A stretch of 33,415 bases of DNA from the NCBI GenBank assembly GCA_043722085.1, contig JAYSPL010000054.1, positions 1-33,415 on the forward strand. Direction: 5' to 3'. Positions 10,501 to 33,415 of this stretch are shown one piece after another. Within the stretch, counting starts at the first letter, position 1, and every line of letters begins with the position of its first letter. Position numbers and translations under genes: made by a program. Source of the stretch: Candidatus Altimarinota bacterium (GTDB lineage Bacteria; Patescibacteriota; Gracilibacteria; BD1-5; UBA2023). The notes under the pieces were generated by a model, which worked only from the letters and a program-made list of their open reading frames with translations, was not told the origin of the DNA and did not search any database.

Positions 10501-11562
10501 ATGTCCAATCTTATCTTTATTCTCACAAGTTTGATTATTACGGCAATTATTACGATACTGCTTATGCCATCGGGGATACGACTTTTTACAAGACTCTGAC
10601 TGGGGAAAAATATACGAAGCGAATGACTCATTGGAAAAGCACTTGAATTTTCAGAACTCCATGCGAAAAAAAAAGGAACGCCAACCATGTGAGGTGTGAT
10701 AATAATTGCGATCATTCTATGAGTCGTGCTTGTTTCGGTGCTGATACAGTACTATGGACATGGGCTCTCGGAAATATTTGGGGTCAGTTTTCGATACAGT
10801 CTCTGGAACAGACGAGAAACCTATATTGTGATATTTACGCTCGTCAGCGTTGGAATAATTGGTATGGTAGATGATTACCTCAATATCAGAGAGATTGGAA
10901 GAACCAAGTGACTCTCCGTAAAAGTAAAAATGTGACTCCTCATCCTATTTGCATTTGTATGAGCCTATTGGTTTTATGATAAACTCAGCTACAGTGGTAT
11001 GAATCTTCCATTCTACGGGCACGTTGAGCTTGGGATTCTCTATATACCACTCTTTATCCTTATCCTTATCGCAACTGCTAATAGTGTCAATATCACTGAT
11101 GGTCTGGATGGACTCGCTGGTGGACTGTTACTGTTTCAGTTTCTCGCCTATGGAGCCATTACATATCTCCAGGGAATGTTTATCTTATCGGCTTTTTGTA
11201 TGATTATCGTGGGAGTCCTTATGTGATTTTTATGGTACAACATTCATCCGGCTAAGATATTTATGGGTGATACCGGTTCACTTGCCCTCGGGGCCACACT
11301 GGCTGTCATCGCCATGATGACTGATACACTCCTCGCATTTGTTGTGATGAGTAGTATATTTATAGGAGAGACCCTCTCTGTGATTATCCAAATAGCAAGT
11401 AAAAAGTTCCGTAATGGAAAAAAAATATTTCGAATTGCTCCGTTCCACCATCATCTTGAGGCTATTGGGTGGGAAGAAGAGACGATCGTGATGCGTCTTT
11501 GGCTTATAGGAATGGTGTTGACCATAGCGGGTACCATTATCGCACTTATTGGTAAGATATAA
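10501..11562 (+). CDS. mraY: Phospho-N-acetylmuramoyl-pentapeptide transferase (353 aa)
   Basis: KKGTPTMGG (first G is TGA), [34 protein letters not shown]. Confidence 0.97.
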
Positions 11563-11593
11563 GTTTTACCGTTGATATAGAAGCGTTGCCTTA

Positions 11594-11725
11594 TATACAG
11601 GCCTTTTCTCTAGGAAGAGAGATCTCATTACGACTTTCTATCTTGTATCATTTTTGTATTCAGTCGTATATCTATTTTTCCGCATCCCAGAGCCATTTCC
11701 GCATCTAGAAGGGAAGAGGCGTATA
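11594..11725. ncRNA. Candidate structured RNA (long imperfect hairpin)
   Basis: Nested pairings TATACaggccttttctcta/tagaagggaagaggcGTATA, GGAAGAGAGAT/ATCTATTTTTCC and TACGACT/AGTCGTA in a 300-bp intergenic gap. Confidence 0.3.
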
Positions 11726-11799
11726 CCATCGATATCCCTTTGTTAGACAGGAAAAAAAACTCTTGACAAGTGAAATCGCCCATAAAAAAAATAAAAAAA

Positions 11800-11827
11800 T
11801 TGCATTTCTATTGCCTCTGCCTATAAT
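11800..11827 (+). promoter_or_regulatory. Putative promoter of the HU gene
   Basis: TTGCAT-16 nt-TATAAT, 36 nt upstream of ATG 11864. Confidence 0.5.
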
Positions 11828-11863
11828 CGTATCTGTCCTTTATTTCTTAATTTTTTATTACTC

Positions 11864-12136
11864 ATGAAAAAGCAGGACTTTATCAAAGCAGTTGCAGCTA
11901 AGGCTGGTCTCAGTCAAGATGCTGTTACAAAGGCGCTCACGGCTCAGATCGAAGTAATCACAAAATCACTCAAAAAAGGTGAAGAAGTGAATGTCACTGG
12001 TTTCGGTGCATGGAAGATCTCGAATCGTGCGGCTCGTAATGGTGTCAACCCTAAAACAGGTGCAAAAATTCAGATCGCCGCTATGAAGACTCCGGTCTTT
12101 CGAGCTGGTAAAACTCTGAAGGAAGCAGTTCGCTAG
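11864..12136 (+). CDS. hup: DNA-binding protein HU (90 aa)
   Basis: MKKQDFIKAVA...VTGFGAW...RAARNGVNPKTG...PVFRAGKTLKEAV. Confidence 0.97.
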   Translation: MKKQDFIKAVAAKAGLSQDAVTKALTAQIEVITKSLKKGEEVNVTGFGAWKISNRAARNGVNPKTGAKIQIAAMKTPVFRAGKTLKEAVR

Positions 12137-12163
12137 TCGACATTCTTATTCATATAGATTCAT

Positions 12164-12190
12164 AAATACCTCTTATTTGAGGTATTTTTT
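12164..12190 (+). terminator. Intrinsic terminator after hup
   Basis: AAATACCTC-ttattt-GAGGTATTT followed by a T run. Confidence 0.8.
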
Positions 12191-12257
12191 GATAATTTTT
12201 GCTTTTTAAAAGAAATCGATATATACTATCTCTATATTCGATAATTACATTCGACCC

Positions 12258-12803
12258 ATGTTGTTTTATGATATTAGTCATCTGAGCTATACAGATGCAA
12301 TACATCGTCTTTCAGGGGCTATAAGTGGCAATGACCATATCTCTTGTCAGATAGATTTTGACGCAGATCATAGTAGATCCAAAATTATTCGTGACTTCAT
12401 AGGTATCATATTTGATGCATACTCTATTCATTATCCGTGGAAAGGTCGATTTATTCTTATTACTGATGAGCTCATTAATAATGCCATCGAGCATGGCAGT
12501 ACCCACGGTGATATTGATAGTTGTATCATCGAAGCTGGTACTGATGAAAAAAACGAATTTTTCATTACCCTAGAAGTACACGATACTGGATATGGGAAAG
12601 ATTCCAAAGACGCCACGCATATGAACGATATACGAAGGGATCGACTCAAGCATACGGGTAACGAGATTTATCTGAATAAACGAGGAAGAGGGCTCTTCCA
12701 TATAATTGAAAAACTCGTTGACAGTCTCACTTTTTCAGTCAGTCCAAAGTGAGGACTGGCCGTAAAGATCGAAAAAAGGATACCAAAAATACTTAGCACA
12801 TAG
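12258..12803 (+). CDS. RsbW-like HATPase_c (anti-sigma kinase-like) protein (181 aa)
   Basis: N-box ELINNAIEHG, G1 VHDTGYG and G2 RGRGLFHII; extends through TGA at 12750. Confidence 0.8.
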
Positions 12804-12823
12804 TGGATCGGTATTTTTGGTAT
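12780..12823. terminator. 13-bp inverted repeat spanning the stop codon
   Basis: ATACCAAAAATAC ...18 nt... GTATTTTTGGTAT. Confidence 0.4.
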
Positions 12824-12855
12824 TGATTATCTCTAAAAATAGATATCATATACGT

Positions 12856-13815
12856 ATGATTCCATTTCACAAACTCTATAGCTGGCTATTTAAATCATTC
12901 AATATTTCCTGAGAAACAATCATCATTGATCGTCTTATTAGCGAATGATATACAGAATTTATGATTATAAAAAGATCATGGATTTTTGCAGTATTTATGC
13001 TCTGGATACCGGTTTCTATACTAGTCCTTGCAGGACTGAGTATATATATCGCCTATAGTAGTATCGAAGTTATCAATATTAGATATACTTTCATCGGAGG
13101 TAATATACTGATGGCAAGCATACTCATCATATCAACTATTAACTATATTAGACACTTTAGATCCATTCACCATGAGCCTCAGATAACAAACGATATTGCT
13201 ACATTAAAAAATGAACTCACAGAATGAGATATTTATTTTCAATCATTTTTCAACTGGTCTATCACCAATCAGTGGTTTCTTGTCTGAATATTCTGTATGG
13301 AAATAGCTCTCGTACTCAACTATTGAAAACAAATTGGAGACAATTTTTGGATATTGACACTAGATACGCTTGTTATCTTGATAGAGATATGACTGCTGCG
13401 ACAATATCGAAAACGCATGATGGATCTGGAGATGGATTATAATATCCTGGTACAAGGGAAGATATTTTTTGTGAACCAATCATGACTGTTATCAGTTATT
13501 CAAACAATAGATTGAGAGAAGATAAAAACAGTACAGTCTATATTTCCCAGTAAAATTGCCAGTTTTTTTAATTATGGAACTGTCCATATCCTCACGGAAT
13601 GAGATAATGCAATGATCGGTACAATGAGTATGTACTACGTGACCAACCCTGATAAAACAGTCGCGCATATCCAAGATTTTATCGATGAAGATACTGCTGC
13701 AAAGGTGGATACTATAGTAAAACACAGCGAGCGAATTCCAGATATTAAGACAACTAATAATAGTAAAACTCATACTCTTGATACGAGAGAAAAAATACGA
13801 GATGTCCTCAGATAG
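12856..13815 (+). CDS. Membrane protein (about 4 TM) with a C-terminal bacterial PH-like domain (319 aa)
   Basis: Open with TGA=Gly. The C-terminus IKTVQS...SFFNYGTVHILTEG...YVTNP resembles the bPH pattern. Confidence 0.65.
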
Positions 13816-13825
13816 AAAACGGATA

Positions 13826-14995
13826 TTAAACAGTCCATTTTCCATTTTCAAATATTCGACGTTCACCGATATATACCGCTTCTAGTGCAATAAAGACGTC
13901 AATATGAAATCGTTGTATTTCATTTTTTGGCAGTTTTTTCCCATAGATTCCATGTTTTTTTCAGAGTGAGAGATGTACGCCGGTCTTTCTCTCATAAAAG
14001 TTGATATCCGAAAGGGAAGTATCTCGGGTAATTGCAGGATTGATACCCATCCCGAGCTCACGTACCATAACTTCTCATTCGAATTGGACAATCCAATCAT
14101 AGAGCTTGGCAAAGGCGGGAGGGAAGTCGTTACTCGGAAGTACTCGTCCACTTTCGATAATAAGCTCAAACGGGGTACAGTGTTCCACTGAAAAATCTTC
14201 GCGTGGATATGATTCGATCAGGCATTTTCCATGAACACCCGAGAGGTCGATTGCTTCAGTAAATACTTCTCCTATAGGGAATGTTCCTCACTTATTGGTA
14301 CTACTCGTATAGTCTCCCGTGTTACCGCGAATCTTCTCAAGAGGTCAATACTGCAAAAATTCGCCGTTCACAGATTGTATTCGAGTACAATCAGCTCATA
14401 GAATAAGTCATTCTATGACATTTTGTAGCCTAACGTATTCGGGAGTATGGTATATGAGCGAGCTCGAGAAAGTATCAAATTCTCACTCCAAAATATAGGC
14501 AAGATGGTTAAATTCGACAACATGAATACCAAGATGAAACAATTCGAGTCTAATGCGAAAAGTTGAAAGACGGAAATTGGTAGACTGAACCAGGATTACA
14601 ATGGATCAAGCCGGAAGGGAAGTGAGTTCATTCTTGAGAATCTCAATCTGTGGATCAATCGCGACCTCATTGGGTGTGGTCTTGCAAGTAATATGATGGT
14701 CCAGTCCAACTCGCTTATTTTCATCAATATTATGTGCAGTAATAATGCGGTTTTGCTCTGTAAGGTGAGGATTGTCGGGATTGATAAGTCCACCACGATA
14801 GAGTGGCTGTGGTGGGTTTTTGAACTCACGAACCACTGATGTATCGATATCTGAGAGTACCCGTATCCAGGCATCTGATACTATTTGAGCCAATGGGGAC
14901 TCCGTATCATATAAGAGATATACCGATTGATCTCGGTATTCTAGATTTTTCTTGAGGATATCAGAGCAAGATTGATCAAGCATTTGGGTATTCAT
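13826..14995 (-). CDS. M29/aminopeptidase T-like metallopeptidase (389 aa)
   Basis: GGTFPIGEVFTE, VRELGMGIN, ERKTGVHLSLG and RFHID motifs. Confidence 0.75.
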
Positions 14996-15042
14996 GGAAG
15001 TATATTAGATAGTCGCAGTGTATAGAGAATTTTAAAAAGGCA

Positions 15043-15079
15043 AGAACATATAATGAGAATTATTCTCATTATATGTTCT
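15043..15079. promoter_or_regulatory. Perfect 18-1-18 palindrome; Fur-box-like operator
   Basis: AGAACATATAATGAGAAT-T-ATTCTCATTATATGTTCT. Positions 15049-15067 match GATAATGATAATCATTATC at 15/19. Confidence 0.5.
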
Positions 15080-15395
15080 ATTACAATACCATATTATGAA
15101 AACTGGCTCGTAGGCGTGTTTTTATTGGTTTTCCGACTAAACGGGATCATCTTGTGTGATAAAAAACAAAGGAGATGCCCATATATCACTATGATTCGTC
15201 ATCACTCCTGAGACTTTTTGGGAAAAATAGAGATTTGATACTTTTTATCTTATCCCTATTTTTTCTTTTTTCCGTCTTTTCTCATTCCATATCTTTCGTA
15301 TCTGGTGCATGAGATATTTCTATCTCTACACAAAGTGTATTCTAGCAGCTACGTAAATACTCGATATGTACTTGCATTATAGTAAAATTCACTAT

Positions 15396-15431
15396 AATCA
15401 CTTCACATAAGTTACATTATGTGAAGTGATT
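15396..15431. other. dif-like Xer recombination site with symmetric arms
   Basis: ACTTCACATAA-GTTACA-TTATGTGAAGT (11-6-11, extendable to 15-bp arms). The TTATGT arm matches the XerD arm of E. coli/B. subtilis dif. It lies 50 nt upstream of the xer ATG. Confidence 0.75.
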
Positions 15432-15481
15432 CGTTTAGGGTATTATTTCGCCAATTCTATTTTCATAATCATACTATGTGT

Positions 15482-16495
15482 ATGAACATCATTACAGCAT
15501 TCGATAATTTTCTCATATATCTCCGTCTGCACAAGGGTCGTTCGCCGAAGACACTCGAGCAATATGCGTTCCACATCTGGAGACTGATTCGCTGGCTGGA
15601 GCCACGCTGAGCAAAGATTTTACCACAATGATTGAATCATTTTTTCTTCTTACCGAACAACTCTGGATACAGTACCGAGAAGCGTCAGGTCATACGAGAT
15701 CTCATTGTCCTCTTCCCTGCCCTAATAGAATCAGTCAAAAAAGAAGATATAGACGCCTGGCGACTGGAGCTCTCTGACTCATGACTGACAGCAAAAACCG
15801 TGAACGCTCATATAATCACGATCAGGTCTTGGCTCAAATATATGAAGAAGGAACAGATTGATTGTCTCGATCCAACCACACTTGACCTCATGCGGGTACA
15901 GGATCGAGAGGTGACATTCCTCACGGGAGAAGAGATCGAAAGGTACTTCGTGGCGATCCCGAGAGAATCCATCCAGTGAAAACGAGACTACGCCATATCT
16001 GAGTGCATCTACTCGACTGGATTGCGTATATCCGAGCTCACAGCACTGAATCGTCAGGATGTGAACTTCGAGACGCTCGAATTCGCTGTACGAGGAAAAT
16101 GAGGCAAGCTCCGGGTCGTCTATCTCACTCCTACGGCCCGAGACGCCATACAGGCCTATCTCGAGGCTCGTAGTGACCACTTTGCCTCCCTCTTCATCCG
16201 ACATAACTACAGTGAATCCGACATCAACTCTTCCCTCCTCTCCGATGACGTGATTCGCCTCTCTCGGTTCCATATCACCAACATGGTAAAGGCATACGGA
16301 CTCCAGGCAGGCATACTCAAAAATATGCACGCACACACGCTCAGGCATTCTTTTGCTACAACACTATTGACAAATGGTGCTGATATCCGTATAATCCAAG
16401 AGCTTCTGGGTCATGCCTCCATCACGACGACCCAAGTCTATACGCATGTGACCAATCCAAAACTCAAAGAAGCTCACCAGAAATATCATAAATAA
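15482..16495 (+). CDS. XerC/XerD-family tyrosine recombinase (337 aa)
   Basis: [18 protein letters not shown] (TGA=G), [25 protein letters not shown]; the catalytic R-K-H-R-H-Y set is intact. Confidence 0.95.
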
Positions 16496-16496
16496 A
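16467..16496 (+). repeat. 30-bp direct repeat, copy 1 (3' end of xer)
   Basis: AAGAAGCTCACCAGAAATATCATAAATAAA, identical to 17014-17043. Confidence 0.95.
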
Positions 16497-16501
16497 AAAA
16501 T

Positions 16502-17005
16502 ATGGCTCAACAAACCTTTGAAGAATTACTAAGAGCGTGAGGTCTATCAAATTATGATGGGCGTTATGGTAAATGACTAATTTCTTATCATAACTATAAG
16601 GGTTTTGATGTATTCGAATTATTACAAGTATATAAAAAGATTAAAAAAAATGCAAATTTAGATTTTAAAAATCTTGATGCCCAATCTGTTCCTTTATTAT
16701 TTGAAAAAAGAATATATTGATCATGAAAGGCTTGAAGACTCCAAAAAAGAATATTACAAGATGCCGTTACAGTTCTTACGGGGTTAAAGAAACCCCCGAT
16801 ACAATCATGAGAAGAATTGACCACTAGAAATATATATAATCTTATTGCTCATTTTTTGGGAGATGAAGATGTATATTGAGACCTCAGACCCGAACAAGCA
16901 AAAAGACTCCTTTCAACAATTGAAATATGGCAAGAATGGGTAAATATGACTCTTCCATTTAAGGAAAGATTCGAGTGAGTAATGCTACAAGAAAATAAGA
17001 AATAA
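16502..17005 (+). CDS. Orphan hypothetical protein (167 aa), AT-rich
   Basis: MAQQTFEELLRAGG...MLQENKK; open only with TGA=Gly; fills the space between the two repeats. Confidence 0.7.
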
Positions 17006-23116: not shown

Positions 23117-23174
23117 ATCTATTCTTTCTGATCATACTGCTTTTAATATGTTGAAATACTCTTTATTCTTTCCC

Positions 23175-25730
23175 ATGCGATCATTCTTGTTCTCTATCCT
23201 TCTCATTGTTTCCTTGTATCAGAGTGATCTAGTATCGGCGAAGATATTGAAACCAAAGCCCCCCTGTCCTACTGGGCATAACTATATCATACTCACCTCT
23301 GCGCCTCTCGGATTCGTGTGTCTATGAGATTCCTATTACTATAATATCGAATATTCTCTCATAGACTACAAGAATCGTCTAAAAAATGGGGAAGACGTTG
23401 TGATAATTCTCAGTGAGATCAGACAGAGTATGCGAGATTCTGGGACGTATACTCCAGCTGAGGGGATTGCTTTTTATCCGATTATCCTCGATCGTATCAA
23501 GGACTATGCGAGCACACTCTGCCGAACAAATAATAATAATCCAATAGTTACTATCCCAGCAACTGGAATCTACGAGGGTGATACTCTCACGCCAACTTGT
23601 TCGCTCTCTGGTAGAGAGAGGCCATCGCAGACAGGATCGATGAGCATGAGTCTCTCGTTCATAGGCATTGGTGGTCAATCGATCAGGTATACTCAGACAG
23701 GCGCATCATTCATTGGTCTCCAGATAGATAAAAAATGAACTGGGAAACACACTATCACCTGTACTTACACACCCAATACTTGTATTGCTCCTCGTATCAA
23801 CAAGCGAGTGATTGATGTTGGCTGAACTGTTATCCCTGATAGCAAACCAATAAAAACACACTCTATAGCTCGAATTTGGAATGAGGTGATGCTATGAGCC
23901 ATACGCAAAGACCGTGTCCGACCTCCAGTGCAGGCCCGAAACCTATTCCATTTTGGAGCGATGAGCTATGATATCTGGGCACTCTACCATCCTGGGAATC
24001 AGACATACCTTTTTGATAATACCGTCATGTGAGTATGTCTCCGTCATCATGCTCAGATTCCCCTAGGCAACCGAGATGCTGACATAGAATGAGCGATGAG
24101 CTATGCGAGCTATCGTCTCATTGTTCACCGATACCGAGAATCTCCAGGATATAGCGATACAATTGCAGCAGCTGACAATCTGATGAATCAACTCGGCTAT
24201 GATACCAAGTATACTAAATCAGATATTTCAAAAACGATAACCCCAGCTGCACTCGGGAATTCTGTTGCTAACTGCTATATCCGGTATGGACTCAAAGATG
24301 GGGCAAATGAAGGTGGAAAAACAGGTATAACATGAGAAAATTGATCATATTCCAACCAGTATTATACACCAATTAATCCACCTCTTGATATGACTGGTAC
24401 GGGATGAGGTAATACTAATATCGTGGATTGGAATAGATGGCAACCGATTTCGCTCGAGACATTTATCGATCAGTGAGGAACTCCAATAGCTGGTGGAGCG
24501 GCGACATTTATCGGAGCAGAATGGGGAAATGTGAAGCCATTTTCACTTCAAAAATACCAACAAACCATACACGAACGAGGTGGAAATAGATATATCACCT
24601 ACCTCGATCCAGGACTTCCTCCTCAGGCAACAGGATCGACCCTAGCACTCTGGCAATGGAACTATGCCCTGGTTGGTCTGTGGTCAGCACACCTAGATCC
24701 AAGTGATATAGCTCGTATCGATATATCACCCTCTCATCTGGGAAATACATCTCCTCTACCTGTCACTTTTTCAGGAATGATTGACTTTTACGATATGAAA
24801 AACGGTGGTACAGAGACGCTCGGAAGAAGCATAAATCCAAAAACTGGAATACCGTATAAGAACAATATAGTATTGCGAGGCGACTATACTCGTGCCATAT
24901 CCGAGTTCTGGGCAGATGGACCCAAGTCAGAAACTCCACCAGGACACTGGTTCACTATTTTCAATAGTGTATCCGATAAGATAGATCAGAAGCGGTGGCA
25001 ATGAACTGGTCCAATCATAGACAATCTCGAATGGGATGTGAAGGGATATTACGCGCTCGGTGGTGCTATGCATGATGCGGCAATAGCTGCCTGGGGGATC
25101 AAGTGAGCCTATGATGGTGTCAGGCCAATATCAGCAATCAGAGCCATGGCAACTCATGGTCAATCATCAGATCCGACGGCATCCTCATACGATATCATGG
25201 GACTCCCCCTGATCCCTGGATATATTGAGCTCATCGGTACCGGCGAGACACTCGCTGGAAAAAGTGGACAAAATATCGGAAAAGTAAAAATCAGGGCCTG
25301 GAAGTGACCAAAATATATCAATGATCCATCGATAGATAGAGCATGAGTCGATTGGATTCTCGCTATCAATTGGTGGCCATATCAGCGACCAAGCTTCGTG
25401 ACTCCGCCATTTGCCGGATATGTATCGGGACATTCGACATTTTCTCGGGCAGCCGCTGAGACACTCATAACAATCACTGGAGATGAATACTTTCCATGAT
25501 GAATCATGGAAACTCGACTTCCGAGAATGAGTTATCTCATATTCGAGCAGTGACCGAATACAGATATCACACTCCAGTGGGCAACCTATCGTGATGCAGC
25601 GGATGAATCAGCGCTCTCTCGTATCTGGTGAGGAATTCATCCACCCATGGATGACATTCCAGGGCGCATGCTATGAGAACAGATTGGTAAGCAAGCAGTA
25701 GGCTACGCGAATAAATATTTCAAAAAGTAG
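23175..25730 (+). CDS. Secreted vanadium-dependent haloperoxidase-like (PAP2 superfamily) protein (851 aa)
   Basis: Signal-peptide-like start MRSFLFSILLIVSL; SIARIWNE...RPPVQARNL; FWADGP.SETPPGHW; K..YDGVRPISAIR; TPPFAGYVSGHSTFS; SRIWGGIHP. Confidence 0.88.
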
Positions 25731-25734
25731 AACA

Positions 25735-25770
25735 AAAACATCTCTCTCGATTACCTAAAAGAGATGTTTT
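25735..25770 (+). terminator. Intrinsic terminator
   Basis: AAAACATCTCT...AGAGATGTTTT immediately after the stop at 25730. Confidence 0.6.
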
Positions 25771-25818: not shown

Positions 25819-27081
25819 ATGCTTACTCGTACACTCCCCTCTCCTGAAAACCAATCCCCCCAGCCCCATTGATCAAGAGGGAGTGAAACCGAAAACACAG
25901 AATCTCCAGAATTCATCGAGCAACAAGTCGATGAGCGGGGATTTTATCTCTATGAGTGGATCTCTCCTGCTGAACTCCGCCTCAGTGTCCAGTCAGACTA
26001 TCTCTCTATCATCAGGGCATCGAGTATGCCACTCGCCATCATGACATTGATTGCTGGATTTATCTGACTCTCTGGTGGTATCATATGAGTCACGCTGGCC
26101 ATACTCTGACTTCTCGGTATTTTCTACACGCTCGTGGTCGTCATCCTCATAGTGAAGATGCTCCGAAAATCATATCTCTATACTCGTGGGGGTAATGTTG
26201 TTATAACGGATAATCACTACGTATCAAACGGTGTGGTCGTGGAGAGATCTGACTTCTCTAAGCAAAGAGAAGCGTTCTCAGAATTAGAGAGAACATTCCG
26301 TGAGCCACTCCTCGGTCCGTCAGTACTCGCCGAGCATATCTCCACGGAGAAGGACTGACTCATAGAACAGATGAAAAATATCGCATCAGGATGAGGTAAA
26401 CTTGTGCAGAGCCTCGGACGATCTCGCGATGCTAGTGCTATTGTTATGGTACTCATGATCGCATGAGTACTCTATGGTGCAATGATGGCTTGAGTCTACT
26501 TTGTTGGAATATTCTTTGTATCGCTATTGGCTCGAGTCTTCTCATGGATGGCCCACCGAGCACTCCTCGCACTCAATAACACGGAGCATACGATACAGAG
26601 TCTCTTCTCTGATATCACAAAATCATCTATAGAGCTCAAGAGTGGACAGAAAAAATCAGTTTCTCTCCTGAGTGACGCGGGTCAAGGTGAATGGTCAGAT
26701 AATCTCTCCAAACGTCTAAGTGAATCATTCGAAGTCATTGGAGAGATGGCAGGCATAGCTACAGATAAAACAGTGGAGTTACAGAAAATCCTCGAGAATT
26801 CCAAATACAAAGATATCTTCAATTTCGTGAAATATGGGAACTGGATCAAAAATCAGGTCCTCTCCCCTATCGAAGAGATACTCCTACTCCTCAATAATAA
26901 TCGTACTACACTCACTCGGACGATTACCGAACTCAATACTCAGATCACGGGCACTACCGATGCCTCATTTCAGAAACCACTGATTCTTCAGAGAGACAGA
27001 TTCGAGATGCAGATAGGGAGTTTTGGCAGGGTTATCACAATGCTCGAAGGATATCAATCAAAACTCGTTCTTAAAAAATAA
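25819..27081 (+). CDS. Membrane protein (about 4 TM) with a helical C-terminal domain (420 aa); paralog of 21185-22216
   Basis: Open with TGA=Gly; contains ERGFY and DIFNFVKYGNWIKNQVLSPIEEI. Confidence 0.78.
25855..25883 (-). repeat. Short GC-rich coding repeat related to the Fic insertion
   Basis: The reverse complement CTCCCTCTTGATCAATGGGGCTGGGGGGA resembles CTCCCTTGATAAGG...CTAGGAGGA. Confidence 0.4.
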
Positions 27082-27088
27082 ATTGCTC

Positions 27089-27796
27089 ATGCATAATATT
27101 CTCAAGATTATTACATTCCATACCCCTATAGAATCTATAGATACGACTGAACATAGGGAACTACAGATTCAAGATATGGTATGAGATTTTATCGTAAACT
27201 CTGGTGAAGATTTTCAGGTCAACCATACTGGTAGTAGTATATACCAGACAATACGCTATATTCATAAAAATCTCCATCTATCACTGGATATCAAACAAGA
27301 TATTGAGATGATTAATTATTGGATACCTCACATGATCTTGAGTGTGGATCTCGTAGATTCTCATCTCGAGAGAAGCGTTGTAGATGATTTTCTCAACACG
27401 ATTGTGAGGTTTTTCTCGGGTACACTATCGGATCAATATTTCATAGAATACGACAGCGTCTATCATATCGATGATATGAACCAGGGTAAAAAATATAGCA
27501 TCAAAGATATAGCAACGCTCGACATGGAAAAGCTCCATGATCCTAACAATAAAAATCTTCTTGACTCACTCCTCTATCTTCACTATACTCTGCAGCAACA
27601 ACTACTCGCTATTGGTATAGCTCAGCACGATATCGATACGTTTCTAGACAGTACAACCGCCCGCGATAATCTCATACAGACACTCTCCTTCTCAAGAGAG
27701 AGAGCGAAAACTATCACTGAGAACCTCCTCCAAAATATACATATTCTCCATACACAAATACAGATATTGTTATCGTATTTTACTCATAAAATCTAA
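27089..27796 (+). CDS. Hypothetical protein (235 aa) with a helical C-terminus
   Basis: ATG 7 nt after the upstream stop; open with TGA=Gly. Confidence 0.72.
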
Positions 27797-27799
27797 ATC

Positions 27800-28252
27800 A
27801 TGGACACACTCCTACTTCCTATTTTGGGATGAATCCTCTATCTTATTATTGGAATCTTCCTCTTCATTTTGAATATGATGTTATTCGAATATTGGACACC
27901 TTTTGACGTCCGACATGGAATCATACGAACACAGAACAAGGCACTTGGATTCATCATACGATGACAGTTTATGGCTCAGGGCATCATTATTAGCGCATTG
28001 ATATTTTTCACAGGATATACTCCTGATCATGCATTTTTTCAGATGAATGTATTCCTCCCATCAATACTCATGACCCTCGTATTTGGATTCATCGGAATGA
28101 TAGTATTGCAATGATGTCTTTGGATTATCATGCGGCTCTATACGATAGAGAAAGAGATTATTGTGGACCACAATGAATCTCTTGGGATGATTATCGAGGC
28201 GTTTCTTATAGCAACAGCACTTCTTGTCAGTGTAGCTTTTTATTCTTACTAA
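27800..28252 (+). CDS. DUF350 (YjfL-like) membrane protein (150 aa)
   Basis: Four TM segments in two repeats: FEYWTPFDVRHGII..QNKALG and IEKEIIVDHNESLG. Missed by the ORF track because of three TGA codons. Confidence 0.8.
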
Positions 28253-28255
28253 TAT

Positions 28256-29500
28256 ATGATATCAAATACGAGTAGATTTGCGATAGCTAAGGACGTCAAA
28301 GAGTGGATCACCAGTACTGGTATTCTTCCTTGGGGGGATATTGCCGGGAGCGATGAATCAACATGGAAATATAACTACACCGGTGATGCGAAGCTACTTG
28401 CCTATATGAATATATATTCGAGTGAGATAGAGGCATTTGCAAAATACTATCCCAACATGGATATACTTCTACAAAATATTCACTGGGATTGATTATTTGC
28501 GTCTGCAAAAACCATGATAATCGAGATATTGGCCACTATCAAGGCAGGAAAATCTCTGGTTATCATACACGCGAATCCTCTTGAACTTGTCATTATTTGA
28601 GAGCTTTTTAAGAGCCAAGGTATTGTTGATGTGGTATACAATTTTAATCGTATGCCAGCGATCAATAGTATATCTAAGACGCTTGAAGCAGGATTATTTC
28701 TTGTCTCATGGGAACATCTCCCTTGGCTCAAAGAAAAAATAGCGCAACTCGCGATTGATGTACGACTCACATCCGATACAGATCTCCTGAAAAACAGTAT
28801 CATACTCCTTGATGAGAATGATACTGTTCCAGATTGGGATATATCCAGGGTAGATCCATATGTCAAAAGTGCCATTGGATGGAAAGAGAATATAGTGATC
28901 TATCGGGTAGATGAGCTTCCACAGAAAACAACTCTACTAGAATACGGCATCAAGGATATATATTTTTTTGATACTGATACCTCTACTACAATCGATTCCT
29001 ACTATCAGGCACAGCTTGGAGACATATTCTCATTTCAGAGCCATACTATCACCTCATCTACGTCACACAGTATCTGATACTATGAGGACTACGTCATAGC
29101 TCAGAATCAAGAATACCTTATATACAAAAAAGAAATATTCTCAAAGAATACCGCTCTACGCTCGACAATGCTACAAGGTGGCGGGAATGAGAAATGGACA
29201 CAAAAAAAATCAAGCAACTCAGGCTCCAAAAACTTAGGAACACCCATACCACTCAAAGAGTCACTCGCCTATCTTGGTTGACTCGCGATCATATTGCCAC
29301 TATTTCTCCTTGTAGAAGCTCGTGGCGGGTCAAGTGTATTCGTGAAAAATGGAACCGGTGGATGGAACTACAATGGCGGATCGAGTATTCGCTCGAGTGG
29401 TACCTCATGGGGATGAGCATTTACTCATAGTAGCTCCTCGAGTACGAACTCATCAATTAGCTCATTCGGTGGTGGCGGATTCTCTAAATGAGGTGGCTAA
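28256..29500 (+). CDS. Hypothetical protein (414 aa): globular domain, one TM segment and a Gly/Ser-rich tail ending GGG
   Basis: Ends ...LAYLGGLAIILPLFLLV...SSSSTNSSISSFGGGGFSKGGG-TAA. Confidence 0.78.
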
Positions 29501-29503
29501 TAT

Positions 29504-30691
29504 ATGCAATTATCTCAATTTGACCCTACATTTTCCGAGAAGTATACTCCAAAATATTGGCTCGATTTTTTTGAACAAAAATATAATTTCAAAGAATTTG
29601 CAAAGAATCATTTTGAATATATTGACGCAAAAACCTTTATCGAATTCTCGGTCGAGGAACAAGAACAAAATAATGAAATAGTCAGGCAAGTTAATGCTAT
29701 ATTTCGACATGCATACGATTTCTATTTTGAGAATTTTTCGAACAATCTCCCTGAATTCAGTGGATTCCAGGATTTTTTTCGCAAAGAATTCCCATATGAT
29801 GAGTACTTCATCGGTAGATATGATATCATGATCGACGAGTCCAGGACCCTCAGATTCCTCGAGACCAATGCCAATACGCCTGGTATGATATGTGAGTCAC
29901 ACTATCCAGCACTTATACTAACTCCAGGTGGGTTTGTGAATCAATCAGGGAATCTTATACGATATACAAGGGACTGGTGGGCCACCAAAAAAACCAAACA
30001 CTGACTCAAGAAAATTGCCATCATCACCGCATATACTCACGAGAATGAAGACTATTTTGTCTGTCGTACGTACGCCGATATCCTTGTAGAGATATACTGA
30101 GTAGACAATGTTATCGTTGGAGATATCTATGATATGAACATCATCGATCATAGTATTATCACGGTCAAGTGAGAGCCGGTAGATGCCATACTATCATATT
30201 TTCCATTAGAGTTTTTTCTCACGGACATGGATTTTGCTCAGGATTTTTTTCAGATTATCCAAGACGGAGGGTGTATACTCGCCAATCCGATCGAGAGCAT
30301 GATTCCTCAGGACAAGCTCATATTCGCAGTAGTATGGGAAAATATCGAGAGATATACACCCGAGCAACAAGAGATCATCCGCAAGCATATCCCATTCACT
30401 ACTCGTACTTTCCAAGAAGATGATACGAGATTCATTGCGAAGTGGCGATTCGGACGATACGGACGAGAGATATATACCGAGAGGTTCTATACCAATATAG
30501 ATGATGACAAGAGATACATCTACCAAGAAAAAGTGATTCCTTGGACGGTGGATGCCAGATGAGACTATCTCGTCATATCTGCCTATACAGACTTCCATGA
30601 TTGTATATCCTGGATATCTCGCAAACAAGAGTTTCGAACTACTGACGATACCTATAACGGAGTGACGCTAATCTATACTTCACCTATATAA
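29504..30691 (+). CDS. Glutathionylspermidine synthase-like ATP-grasp ligase (395 aa)
   Basis: GRYD, FLETNANTPG, YFPLEF, QDK..FAVVW, AKWRFGRYG and YIYQE; no amidase domain seen. Confidence 0.88.
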
Positions 30692-30696
30692 TATCT

Positions 30697-31101
30697 ATGA
30701 ATGCATCTATTATATCTACCGTTCTCATAACCCTATTTGGTATAGTTACAGGGCTTTCAGGATCGAGCTGGTTCTGGACTGTTATCATCTTATTTCCGAT
30801 AATTGTGTGTTGGAGACTTAAGGCCATCAGTAGCCTGGGTACGTTTATATGATGATATGTGAATGCATTAATAAATCCTATAGTAGGATGATCTATACTG
30901 TTGATACTAGCACTCATGACTCATTGATTTATTACCTTTGGCGATGTTATCGTCTTTATCTATATATCATTACTATTGTTCATTATTGGAAAAATTCTAT
31001 GAGTAAAAGTGGGTAACACAGAGAATATATCTCCGTATGTACTATTTTCCTTGCTCACAGCAATTCTATGAACTATAACGATTTCATTTATGATGCCCTA
31101 G
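30697..31101 (+). CDS. Small hydrophobic membrane protein (134 aa)
   Basis: Open only with TGA=Gly (six TGA codons); almost entirely hydrophobic. Confidence 0.7.
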
Positions 31102-31138
31102 CCATATTTTATAAACTTCACACTAAACCACATACTAT

Positions 31139-32269
31139 ATGACGTATTCACTCACAGCGGGTCTTCGGGAACTCGGACCATACACGGCTATCCAATATCC
31201 CAATAATGATATCAAATGAGATATCAGCCCCATCCTCTATGATACGGCGTCAATTTCCCTAATGGACGATATGGCGTCATATGCGCTCTGTTACAAGGAA
31301 ACGCAGAATCTATCAGGAAAGAAGATAGCATTCGTGGATGTCGTGAATATGGCAGATGGCACATTTTTCTCACTCCAGGTAAGCAATATCTACTACTGTG
31401 ATGTATTCGATGGGAGGCCACATATCATAGCAAAAATAGGAAAAGAACTCACCTATTTTGAGAATTTTGGTAAGTCCACCCGACCCATAGAACCAGATGG
31501 AGACAAGCATGAGCTCACGCCTCTGGGCGCATTCGATATGTTTCTCAGTTATGATGATGACTACTATTATCCCCTTCTATTCTCTGGGGATCACCAGAAA
31601 CTTGCTAAGATCACCCGATTTTTTGACTACTATGGATGGCGGAGTTATGTTGATCCCAATGGTGGAGAGCACTTTGTGATAATGATAGAAGACGAACGAT
31701 CAACGGAATCAGATCCATATTGGTATTGGGTAGATAACTTTGTTCCTATATCTGGCAAGGTAGTATTTCCCGAGGATCAGTATGTCGAGGAGTGGAATCT
31801 CGATCCCTATGGCACCATCCTATTCACAATAACCAATGGAGATAAGTATCATATCGATCGAAACGTTGGCACCGTAGTCTCTGGTTGGGAATGAGTCACT
31901 CCTTCGAAGAATTTTGTATTTATTCGTGAATATGACGATACTGATGCTGACGTGATCGTAGCCAAAAATGATAATGGCTCCTTCATTATCGACCGTAATC
32001 TCATCAGCATATCAGAATCCGATCAACAGGATATTATCTACTTCAAACAATTTGTCTGGTGCCTCTCTCCGAGTGAAGCAGATCGTGCTACACCATGTTT
32101 CTTGATGACCAAGGATGATGGACAAGTCGTACTGATTGACTCAAGGTCTCGTATTCTCTGCGGAACGGATCTCCAGTATGACTATGATATCGTCACGGCT
32201 ACTATAAAAGATCAGATACTCACGGTCGTACTCTCAGGTAGTAAGACATATACCTATATCATCATCTAA
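31139..32269 (+). CDS. Hypothetical acidic, aromatic-rich and probably beta-rich protein (376 aa)
   Basis: Track ORFs 31262 and 31952 are joined by TGA; ATG at 31139. Confidence 0.72.
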
Positions 32270-32275
32270 AATACT

Positions 32276-33112
32276 ATGGAGCCAACTATTCGCCATATAC
32301 ATACGGAACTGCAAGATATTATCATAGAGAAATCAGATGACGATCTGAGGCTCACACTCGATGCAGAGCTACAATTTAGTTTTTCAGAAGATGCTATCTA
32401 TACCGATGCTATGACCCATATTCCTATGAGACATCTCAGTGGGAGATCAGATATCCGAGTGCTCATCCTCGGTGGAGGAGATGGATTCATCGCCGATCGG
32501 ATCAGTACGTACTCGAGTGTATGTAGCATTGATCTCTGTGAGCTCGATGCTGGCATGATTGCACTCTGTACGAATGATCCAGATATCAGGGAGTTCAATC
32601 ATGATATATTCTTGAATCAGATAATGCATATACATATAGCAGATGCCTATAGCTGGATTACTGAGCAATCGGGTATGTATGATCTCATCATTGCTGATTT
32701 TCCAGATGCTCATAGCCCAGAGCTGTCTCGGTTATTTTCCAGAGAATTTTATCTCAATATAGCGACTATCCTCAGAAAGGATGGAATATTTATTACTCTA
32801 GGATCTGAGATCGAACATACTCCAAAATGTTTTGATTGTATTATCAAGACTCTTAGAGAGATTTTCCCATACACAGTTCCGTTCTCAGTAGATATGCCAA
32901 CAACCTACGGCAATATGTGACTCATCATGGGATCTCGCTCCGATATATCCAGAACCACAGAAAACTTGAACCTATATATACCAGCACACTTAAACAACAT
33001 AGTAGTCAATACCGTCTCGAATAATCAGGCCTATCACTATTTTGATGAACAGACTCAGGCATCTGGATTCATCCCTGGCGTCACCAACCGTACTAATACA
33101 TATGCCACATAA
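32276..33112 (+). CDS. speE: Spermidine synthase / polyamine aminopropyltransferase (278 aa)
   Basis: LTLDAELQFS, VLILGGGDG, CELD, ADA, YDLIIADFPD and LFSREFY. Confidence 0.9.
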
Positions 33113-33353
33113 TACCGGAACACACATTATCCTCGATGGACAAGATTGTAATATAGACTTCACTACTCTCGATATCGCGTCAATAGAGGTGTATATCGCT
33201 TCTCTTCTGAGAGACGCTCGTATGACGGTACTTGGTACTCTATTTCATGATTTTAGGGAACCACCGTGAGCATTTACTGGTATTATTTTACTGGGTGAGT
33301 CTCATTTTTCTATTCATACTAAAATCCCCCCAAAATTTCCTATTTCCTCCTAG
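33102..33353 (+). pseudogene. speD: S-adenosylmethionine decarboxylase proenzyme, interrupted after about codon 73
   Basis: GTHIILD...HDF.EPPGAFTGIILLGESHFSIHT. Homology stops at 33320: the expected xPE...DxxxCG part is absent and a TAG follows at 33351. Confidence 0.8.
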
Positions 33354-33415
33354 AACCCGAGGCTTAGCTGTGCGGAAAGATGAGGTTTTTGAATTACTTT
33401 CTCAAGATTCCAGTG
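33321..33415 (-). mobile_element. Possible end of an insertion sequence (transposase C-terminus)
   Basis: Abrupt junction inside speD. The minus-strand frame 33415-33350 reads HWNLEKVIQKPHLSAQLSLGF*, ending in a QLSLF-like clamp-binding motif. Confidence 0.4.

Follow-up and report, generated by a model that had tools for sequence, protein, structure and literature searches.

Glutathionylspermidine synthetase (GspS) activates a terminal glycine carboxylate with ATP and then joins it to spermidine through an amide. GspS, RimK and tubulin-tyrosine ligase are all ATP-grasp enzymes that act on terminal carboxylates; RimK and tubulin-tyrosine ligase belong to other ATP-grasp families and add amino acids, not polyamines. 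YgiC and YjfC of Escherichia coli are named peptide--spermidine ligases in RefSeq, and the gene directly before each encodes a protein with a Gly-Gly end (YgiB, ...RSMGG, before YgiC; YjfM, ...GHWGG, before YjfC). Here we describe a cassette of this kind on a contig of Candidatus Altimarinota bacterium (Gracilibacteria; JAYSPL010000054.1, 33,415 nucleotides (nt)), the whole of which is our window. Nine packed genes at 25819-33353, which we number g1 to g9, include a GSP_synth-family ligase (g5) that directly follows the gene for a membrane-anchored protein with a Gly-Gly-Gly end (g4). We found that the locus is a Gracilibacteria-specific version of the known cassette of DUF350 protein, Gly-tailed protein and YgiC/YjfC-type ligase, linked to an S-adenosylmethionine (AdoMet) decarboxylase and an aminopropyltransferase.

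A reading of the window made from its sequence only had likened it to ygiB-ygiC and yjfL-yjfM-yjfC of E. coli. The gene order bears this analogy out, and it extends across the DUF1190 family. The yjfLMC order is matched, with DUF350, a Gly-Gly-tailed membrane protein and a GSP_synth ligase a few bases on. In contrast to its E. coli counterparts g4 is not a DUF1190 protein and has no N-terminal anchor or Cys-containing domain, but instead a 330-residue alpha/beta domain. Compared with yjfIJKLMC, no counterparts of PspA, YjfI or YjfK were detected in the cassette, which adds SpeE, SpeD, g2, g7 and a 384-residue membrane protein. GspSA and trypanothione synthetase share the PF03738 synthetase part; their amidase domain is absent here, and no glutathione synthesis genes were found in six operon-bearing genomes. 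Clusters of AdoMet decarboxylase, DUF350 and GSP-synthetase-like genes were reportedly surveyed by Li et al. in 2019.

A 2025 review (PMC11762307) gives YgiC peptide-spermidine ligase activity and says that its physiological substrate is not known. Operons that join a GspS-like ATP-grasp ligase, DUF350, DUF1190 and AdoMet decarboxylase, with variants without the PspA dyad, are described in PMC11237479 (Ravi et al. 2024), where Li et al. is cited. With the third group set out there our cassette shares the ligase, DUF350, a tailed envelope protein and AdoMet decarboxylase. Unlike that group it lacks a potassium channel, DUF1190, DUF2491 and polyamine oxidase, and it has proteins of its own, namely g2, g4, g7 and the 384-residue membrane protein. 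No dyad of PspA and a CesT/Tir-like protein was detected, no Pfam family being found on g1, g2, g6 or g7. The part of PMC11237479 available mentions neither Gly-Gly as a candidate substrate nor a version from the Candidate Phyla Radiation (CPR) or in code 25. A literature search whose range lay outside the primary ligase papers returned no proposal of the DUF1190 tail as the substrate of YgiC or YjfC. The cassette type is already in print, and the particular interest of this version lies in a carrier protein that is not homologous to DUF1190 and whose Gly-Gly-Gly end is frozen.

The C-terminal tail of g4 and the ligase encoded after it

The g4 gene (28256-29500, plus strand) encodes 414 residues comprising an alpha/beta domain, one hydrophobic helix and a 59-residue Ser/Gly-rich basic tail. 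Genes were called under translation table 25, in which TGA encodes Gly, and compared with table 11. The protein ends ...SISSFGGGGFSKGGG, with TGA encoding Gly412. We found that the end SFGGGGFSKGGG is identical in all 14 loci known to us, six metagenome loci included. Eight loci were read codon by codon, and in all eight the last 13 residues, SSFGGGGFSKGGG (29459-29497 in the window, followed by a TAA stop), are the same. Each of these 13 codons occurs in 2-5 synonymous forms, exchanges between TGA and GGN included, and the stop is TAA in seven loci and TAG in one. An identical tail over varying synonymous codons shows, at the level of comparison between loci, that selection acts on the protein end and not on the DNA. 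The roughly 45 tail residues upstream of the motif drift freely.

The conservation of the terminal Gly-Gly, which the sequence-only reading had singled out for checking, extends to the databases. There we found 23 homologues of g4, of which 20 were aligned; 18 of the 20, down to 28% identity, end in Gly-Gly. The two homologues without a tail are encoded on contigs of 2718 and 1028 nt that end before it, so that every homologue with a complete tail has the Gly-Gly. The complete homologues end ...FSK-G/W-GG, with two cases of FSKGSGG and FSKGSSSGG instead. Many public proteins of the g4 family carry Trp at the TGA codon, where the DNA read in code 25 gives Gly. With TGA called as Trp, the run of Gly in the tail is not visible in databases.

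The tail motif occurs once in the genome, in g4 only, and 20 of 3054 raw open reading frames (ORFs) of at least 100 residues end in Gly-Gly. Chance is not a serious rival explanation of the Gly tail. We also considered the tail as a general sorting signal, which we rejected since the motif is single-copy in the genome. A readthrough fusion of DUF350 and g4 was rejected as well; here both genes lie in one frame, whereas in L007, one of the related loci, their frames differ.

An AlphaFold2 model of g4 (mean predicted local distance difference test, pLDDT, 69.5) has a confident alpha/beta domain with five parallel strands at about residues 40-300, a helix at 333-355 and a disordered tail. The only hydrophobic 19-residue stretch spans residues 337-355 (nt 29264-29320). 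Foldseek returned no match to the fold at E<=1e-3, and the best VIA-align hit among 48,161 chains (Z 5.3, rmsd 4.5, 111 residues aligned) points to a generic Rossmann/RecA-like sandwich. Neither search places the domain in a family, though its fold need not be new. Across the family Ser, Gly and Thr make up 64-71% of the tail. Assignment of g4 to DUF1190 (PF06693) was rejected, as neither the whole protein (E<=0.01) nor its last 90 residues (E<=10) matched, whereas YgiB scores 187 bits and YjfM 64 bits. The DUF1190-type N-terminal anchor or lipobox and Cys-containing domain are missing from g4; YgiB and YjfM are hydrophobic at residues 21-35 and 39-53, respectively. What g4 shares with DUF1190 is the tail trait: Ser/Gly-rich and basic, ending in Gly-Gly, and encoded directly before the ligase.

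The ligase gene g5 (29504-30691, plus strand) encodes 395 residues. It matches the GSP_synth family (PF03738) with 58.7 bits against a cut-off of 29.3, over residues 27-361 and profile positions 10-341 of 371, and a whole-genome GSP_synth search returned the same locus. This was the only Pfam match in the protein, and there is no N-terminal CHAP amidase domain. The earlier description of g5 as a Gsp-synthase-like ATP-grasp ligase thus holds, and the protein is of the stand-alone YgiC/YjfC kind. The stretch RYD...LETNANTPG is invariant in 8 of 8 ligases; its aligned counterparts are RMD...LEYNADTPT in YjfC and the equivalent stretch in YgiC (7uk8, E 0.042). We take the R-x-D and L-E-x-N-A-x-T-P residues to be those that bind Mg/ATP and substrate. 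The name most specific among its 46 relatives is 'glutathionylspermidine synthase family protein'.

To define how widely the pair occurs, 185,579 species genomes were searched by pattern with the g4 alignment. This gave seven loci, all from Gracilibacteria or Patescibacteria metagenome-assembled genomes, and a metagenome scan with the ligase alignment gave six more, for 13 related loci in all. These loci are not independent and represent roughly five or six lineages, with g4 30-60% identical overall. In all 13, g4 and the ligase occur together. With the window counted, 13 of the 14 loci have g4 immediately ahead of the ligase, and between the g4 stop and the ligase start there is either an overlap (TAATG) or a gap of 1-3 nt (3 nt here). 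The one locus with the pair apart is L011, where a block of about 5.6 kb separates them; positions 11562-16775 there hold an ORF of 1080 residues on the opposite strand and one of 491 residues.

The common order, kept in L007-L010, is g2, DUF350, g4, ligase, small membrane ORFs in some cases, g7, SpeE, SpeD and the 384-residue membrane protein. In loci of the L012 type (L012, L014, L016 and L019) speD and speE lie upstream and divergent, and SpeE is only 23-25% identical. The remaining related loci are partial. The ligase was found in none of 200 other sampled genomes of the class; of 401 genomes sampled across the phylum, 9 gave any GSP_synth protein, the source genome among them. The ligase clade comprises 46 clusters among 5.8 billion sequences. 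The operon is real, conserved and rare.

Tailed proteins beside related ligases

We asked how the ends of tailed proteins in other ligase loci compare with that of g4. For DUF1190 we tallied 115 representatives of at least 170 residues, clustered at 50% identity, and found that 87 end in Gly-Gly and 89 in Gly. A typical end consists of ...RGGFG, then 10-25 Ser/Gly/Lys/Arg-rich residues, then [WF]GG. Among close relatives of YgiB, 117 of 120 end in Gly-Gly.

A third lineage of loci, which repeats the pattern more loosely, comes from standard-code CPR bacteria (CPR family f40 and its kin). Here a Ser/Gly-tailed protein is encoded upstream of the ligase in 6 of 7 loci. The tails end in GGGGG, KGGG, NG, AG, GTS and SSS, so that four of the six end in Gly. 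An N-terminal hydrophobic stretch is present in five of the six tailed proteins and absent from the other (133 residues, locus L021). In L020-L024 and L026 the unit consists of a small two-helix membrane protein, the Ser/Gly-tailed protein and the GSP_synth ligase. The small membrane protein was not recognised as DUF350. The tailed protein mostly carries a C...VGD...C motif and was not recognised as DUF1190. On the evidence of these comparisons a tailed protein before the ligase is the rule, while a terminal Gly is common but not universal.

These parallels raise a broader proposal, that YgiC/YjfC-type ligases are protein C-terminal polyaminating enzymes whose substrate is the Gly-ended tail of the membrane protein encoded upstream. 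The pairing would then have evolved at least three times with unrelated carriers, which would be DUF1190 in Proteobacteria, the tailed family in other CPR bacteria and the 414-residue protein described here. By analogy across the three lineages we regard this as possible, though less likely than not.

Remaining genes and boundaries of the cassette

The window is the whole of one contig (C54) of the source genome (1.28 Mb in 155 contigs, 89.65% complete). Under table 25 the nine genes lie packed on the plus strand with 1-8 in-frame TGA codons each. The whole operon region is open only in code 25 and falls into fragments under table 11. The gaps from g1 to g8 are, in order, 7, 3, 3, 3, 5, 37 and 6 nt, and g8 and g9 overlap; the 37-nt gap precedes g7, the others being 3-7 nt. 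Pfam names four of the nine genes (g3, g5, g8 and g9), and g1, g2, g4, g6 and g7 have no Pfam family match. The layout first described, nine packed genes with DUF350, a Gsp-synthase-like ligase, SpeE and SpeD, was seen again under table 25 with Pfam matches. The statement that the Gly tail and the DUF350 gene are hidden by the standard code was also borne out, since under table 11 g4 is in pieces and no plus-strand ORF of at least 50 residues exists within 27800-28252. A scan for promoters and terminators gave counts at the level of shuffled sequence (28 against 29.2 and 4 against 3.5).

The first conserved gene of the cassette is g2 (27089-27796, plus strand), which encodes a soluble protein of 235 residues with no family assigned, its start chosen by alignment of homologues. 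Homologues occupy the same position in L007-L012, L014, L016, L018 and L019. No relation of g2 to E. coli YjfK was detectable (hhalign probability 0.24%), and no PDB match was found. It is followed by g3 (27800-28252, plus strand; 150 residues, three in-frame TGA codons), a membrane protein of the YjfL type. The assignment of g3 to DUF350 was upheld by the profile search (PF03994, 55.4 bits against a cut-off of 26, E 8.9e-15, residues 9-146), and the protein is 52-60% identical across related loci. Downstream of the ligase, g6 (30697-31101, plus strand) encodes a small membrane protein of 134 residues. It is weakly conserved, with weak tblastn matches in L007-L009 and L013, and its copy number varies, several small membrane ORFs filling its slot in L010 and L011.

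The g7 gene (31139-32269, plus strand) encodes an all-beta protein of 376 residues without a signal peptide. No Pfam match, DUF4178 included, was found at E<=10. Its model (pLDDT 72.5) consists of strands throughout, and Foldseek pairs it with beta-propellers at E of about 3e-6 but with template modelling (TM) scores of 0.16-0.29, a loose likeness only. The ligase and g7 (41-67% identity) are the best-conserved proteins of the cassette, above g4.

The g8 gene (32276-33112, plus strand) encodes a SpeE-type aminopropyltransferase of 278 residues that matches Spermine_synth (PF01564; E 3.9e-28, 98.7 bits). Aligned with E. coli SpeE (24% identity), it shares the GGGDG motif and the first Asp of the D-x-x-D stretch. 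In NCBIfam it scores best against PRK03612, at positions 243-469 of 522, the catalytic half of membrane-fused aminopropyltransferases. The protein stays under every NCBIfam equivalog cut-off (PRK03612 169 against 472, PRK00811 122 against 260, TIGR00417 105 against 250), and the match names no amine substrate.

The last gene, g9 (33102-33318, alternative start 33042, plus strand), is a 5' fragment of speD for a class-1b AdoMet decarboxylase. It matches AdoMet_dc (PF02675, E 1.9e-9) over profile positions 1-63 of 107 only and reaches 40.6 bits against TIGR03330, under the cut-off of 75.65. The gene is cut after the stretch ...ESHFSIH. The Glu-Ser self-cleavage site (..GESH..) is kept and the break falls six codons later, so that g9 fails as a complete SpeD proenzyme. 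What follows is the end of an insertion element (33319-33415, strand not assigned), whose terminal inverted repeat begins CTAAAATCC and which ends the contig. The 3' remainder of speD is found on another contig of the same genome (C87, 5978-6130, minus strand), whose reverse complement opens with the other end of the element. A 7-bp direct duplication (33312-33318) flanks the element ends on both contigs. In relatives speD is whole.

The genome holds 35 copies of the 16-base terminal word of the element, and nearly all lie no more than about 175 nt from a contig end. The element has two different inner ends, and it also forms the last ~95 bases of C87. In two likely source runs the word depth is 324-884 for the element and 11.4 for speD, about 28-77 times that of unique sequence. 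One unitig spans the junction of speD and element without a difference. No bridging contig with uninterrupted speD was among those listed; rare variants can drop out of contigs. Because the insertion element interrupts the gene, speD is probably inactive in this organism. Much of the break-up of the assembly into 155 contigs is probably due to this element.

Beyond the break on C87, speD is followed by the gene for a multi-pass membrane protein of 384 residues (L003 393-1547, minus strand). Its relatives (362-384 residues; L007 10321-11418, L012 14375-15460) are encoded directly after speD or after g7 and always accompany the cassette. Four histidine-containing stretches are conserved in the protein, as is a C-terminal HYILD..Y.W motif, and searches of Pfam and NCBIfam gave no family for it. 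It may be a membrane enzyme. A protein beginning ...GFD.FFQAVT.SPEF... is encoded after it in the source genome (L003 1-423, minus strand); in L010 (1374-2678, plus strand) its gene lies upstream of the cassette, two genes away. It may be loosely associated with the cassette.

At the other boundary, g1 (25819-27081, alternative start 25771, plus strand) encodes a membrane protein of 420-436 residues with a coiled-coil-like C-terminal half and no Pfam or NCBIfam family. It does not lie beside the operon in any of the seven related genomic loci, and in 5 of 5 operon-bearing relatives its homologues are located elsewhere. This indicates that the adjacency of g1 is local and that g1 stands outside the conserved set. 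Thus, of the nine genes first grouped together, eight are linked; g1 is unlinked in relatives, and the 384-residue membrane protein belongs in its stead. A perfect 14-bp hairpin (25735-25770) is the sole mark in the gap before g1. It stands between g1 and a plus-strand gene (23148-25730) for an 860-residue protein with an N-terminal hydrophobic leader and 19 in-frame TGA codons. This protein matches DUF6851 and the second helical domain of vanadium chloroperoxidase-like enzymes.

Weighing the readings of the tail

We consider C-terminal polyamination of the g4 tail by the ligase to be the best reading of the locus, though a tentative one that we put somewhat short of an even chance. The polyamine would be supplied by SpeD and SpeE, or by uptake. 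At the expense of ATP the cytoplasmic ligase would activate the free carboxylate of the terminal g4 glycine and would then form an amide with the polyamine, so that the membrane-anchored g4 would carry a C-terminal polyamine. Across the g4 proteins the helix lies 59-75 residues from the C-terminus. Because it is so close to the end, membrane insertion would be largely post-translational, and the finished tail would be exposed to the cytoplasm at the end of translation, before or without insertion. We infer all three of these elements, namely the tail as acyl substrate, a spermidine-like amine and the timing relative to membrane insertion.

The same proposal had been made in the sequence-only reading. 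It gains from the family of the ligase, from the conservation of the Gly-Gly, from the co-occurrence of the two genes and from the finding that PF04262 and PF02955, which represent the gshA/gshB check, are present in 0 of 6 operon-bearing genomes (the PF04262 control matches E. coli only, and other gshA types are possible). Topology and polyamine supply weaken it.

Several observations weigh against polyamination of the tail. The g4 protein has no N-terminal signal, an N-terminal domain of about 330 residues and one helix. Because there is no signal peptide and a single hydrophobic helix, the standard prediction by default is N-in/C-out, which would place the tail outside and the ligase inside. 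The earlier proposal was to be given up if tail and ligase lay on opposite sides of the membrane, and this is where the default topology would put them; the charges are ambiguous. The 20-residue flanks of the helix show no clear charge bias and leave the topology undecided by charge, and the charge of the tail (4-7 Lys/Arg and 0-1 Asp/Glu) disfavours export.

The supply of polyamine is a further difficulty, beginning with the broken speD of this genome. Neither MetK nor an ornithine/arginine decarboxylase or agmatinase family turned up in the source genome (G000), where the MetK C-domain, PF02784 and PF00491 were the only families searched, or in a one-contig relative (G201), where the search returned neither MetK nor PF02784. 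Among five relatives MetK is present in two, PF02784 in two and PF00491 in none. In an incomplete genome, such an absence proves little. With speD interrupted and no precursor-synthesis families found, a polyamine supply through SpeD and SpeE would rest on imported precursors. The statement that SpeD and SpeE supply the polyamine is weakened by the interruption of speD and by the precursor families that were not found.

The ligase is also very distant from YgiC and YjfC, as BLASTP of g5 against YjfC returned nothing and hhalign aligned 42 columns at 21.9% probability. Finally, 28 of the 115 DUF1190 representatives do not end in Gly-Gly, although several of these look truncated or frameshifted, and two of the six upstream tails of the third lineage end in Ser. 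It follows that a terminal Gly is not universal in the ligase family.

We weighed three other explanations against C-terminal polyamination. It is conceivable, if rather unlikely, that the ligase joins a polyamine to a small peptide or metabolite and so yields a soluble conjugate, functionally analogous to glutathionylspermidine. In that case g4 would be a membrane scaffold, sensor or regulator of the pathway, and the membrane proteins (DUF350, g6 and the 384-residue protein) would move the product or its precursors. The characterised relatives do act on small molecules or peptides: GspS acts on glutathione, and YgiC and YjfC act on peptides, according to their RefSeq names and PMC11762307. 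The three or four membrane proteins of the cassette are consistent with a transported product, the N-terminal domain of g4 has enzyme-like invariant acidic and aromatic residues, and the ligase and g7 are more conserved than g4. However, neither a small-peptide gene nor glutathione synthesis genes were found. A soluble product would also leave unexplained why 12-13 end residues are frozen in an otherwise drifting, disordered tail, and why three unrelated upstream proteins have similar tails. It is improbable, we think, that the tail is instead an extracytoplasmic linker, a binding motif or a contact for DUF350, independent of the chemistry of the ligase, with the adjacency of the genes reflecting a shared membrane complex or regulation. 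This would suit the default topology and a disordered tail so rich in Ser, Gly and Thr. For E. coli YgiB, two sources give a predicted outer-membrane lipoprotein (PMC11762307; bioRxiv preprint 10.1101/2021.12.13.472529), and its level is reported to rise in a mutant of the periplasmic tail-specific protease (PMC13435647). Against this stand the basic composition of the tail, which disfavours export, a motif found in no protein but the one whose gene precedes the ligase, and the overlap or 1-3 nt spacing of g4 stop and ligase start.

Very improbable in our judgement is a role of the tail as amine acceptor and not as acyl donor, with the SpeE-like enzyme aminopropylating its Lys at position -4, or the ligase acylating it, to give a hypusine-like or isopeptide-like modification. 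All 14 loci have this Lys, and so do the 18 database homologues whose tails are complete. The SpeE protein resembles the catalytic half of membrane-fused aminopropyltransferases, which Li et al. in 2019 are said to have proposed to act on something other than putrescine, and no diamine synthesis genes were found. In DUF1190 tails, by contrast, no lysine is fixed close to the end. Two further points count against this role: known GSP_synth enzymes couple a free amine to a carboxylate that they have activated, and in the L012-type loci speE and speD are divergent, with a weakly similar SpeE.

To return to C-terminal polyamination, g4 is a non-DUF1190 protein that holds the same gene slot and has the same kind of tail, and it thereby provides independent comparative evidence on the question of what YgiC and YjfC act on. 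If the proposal for the wider ligase family is true, the recognition motif would find its cleanest natural definition in the Gracilibacteria tail SFGGGGFSKGGG. If polyamination of the tail is false, the frozen tail would still be a recognition element in want of an explanation. If it is true, this would be a new protein modification that tethers a polyamine to the cell membrane, and some very reduced symbiotic bacteria would keep a nine-gene system for such a modification.

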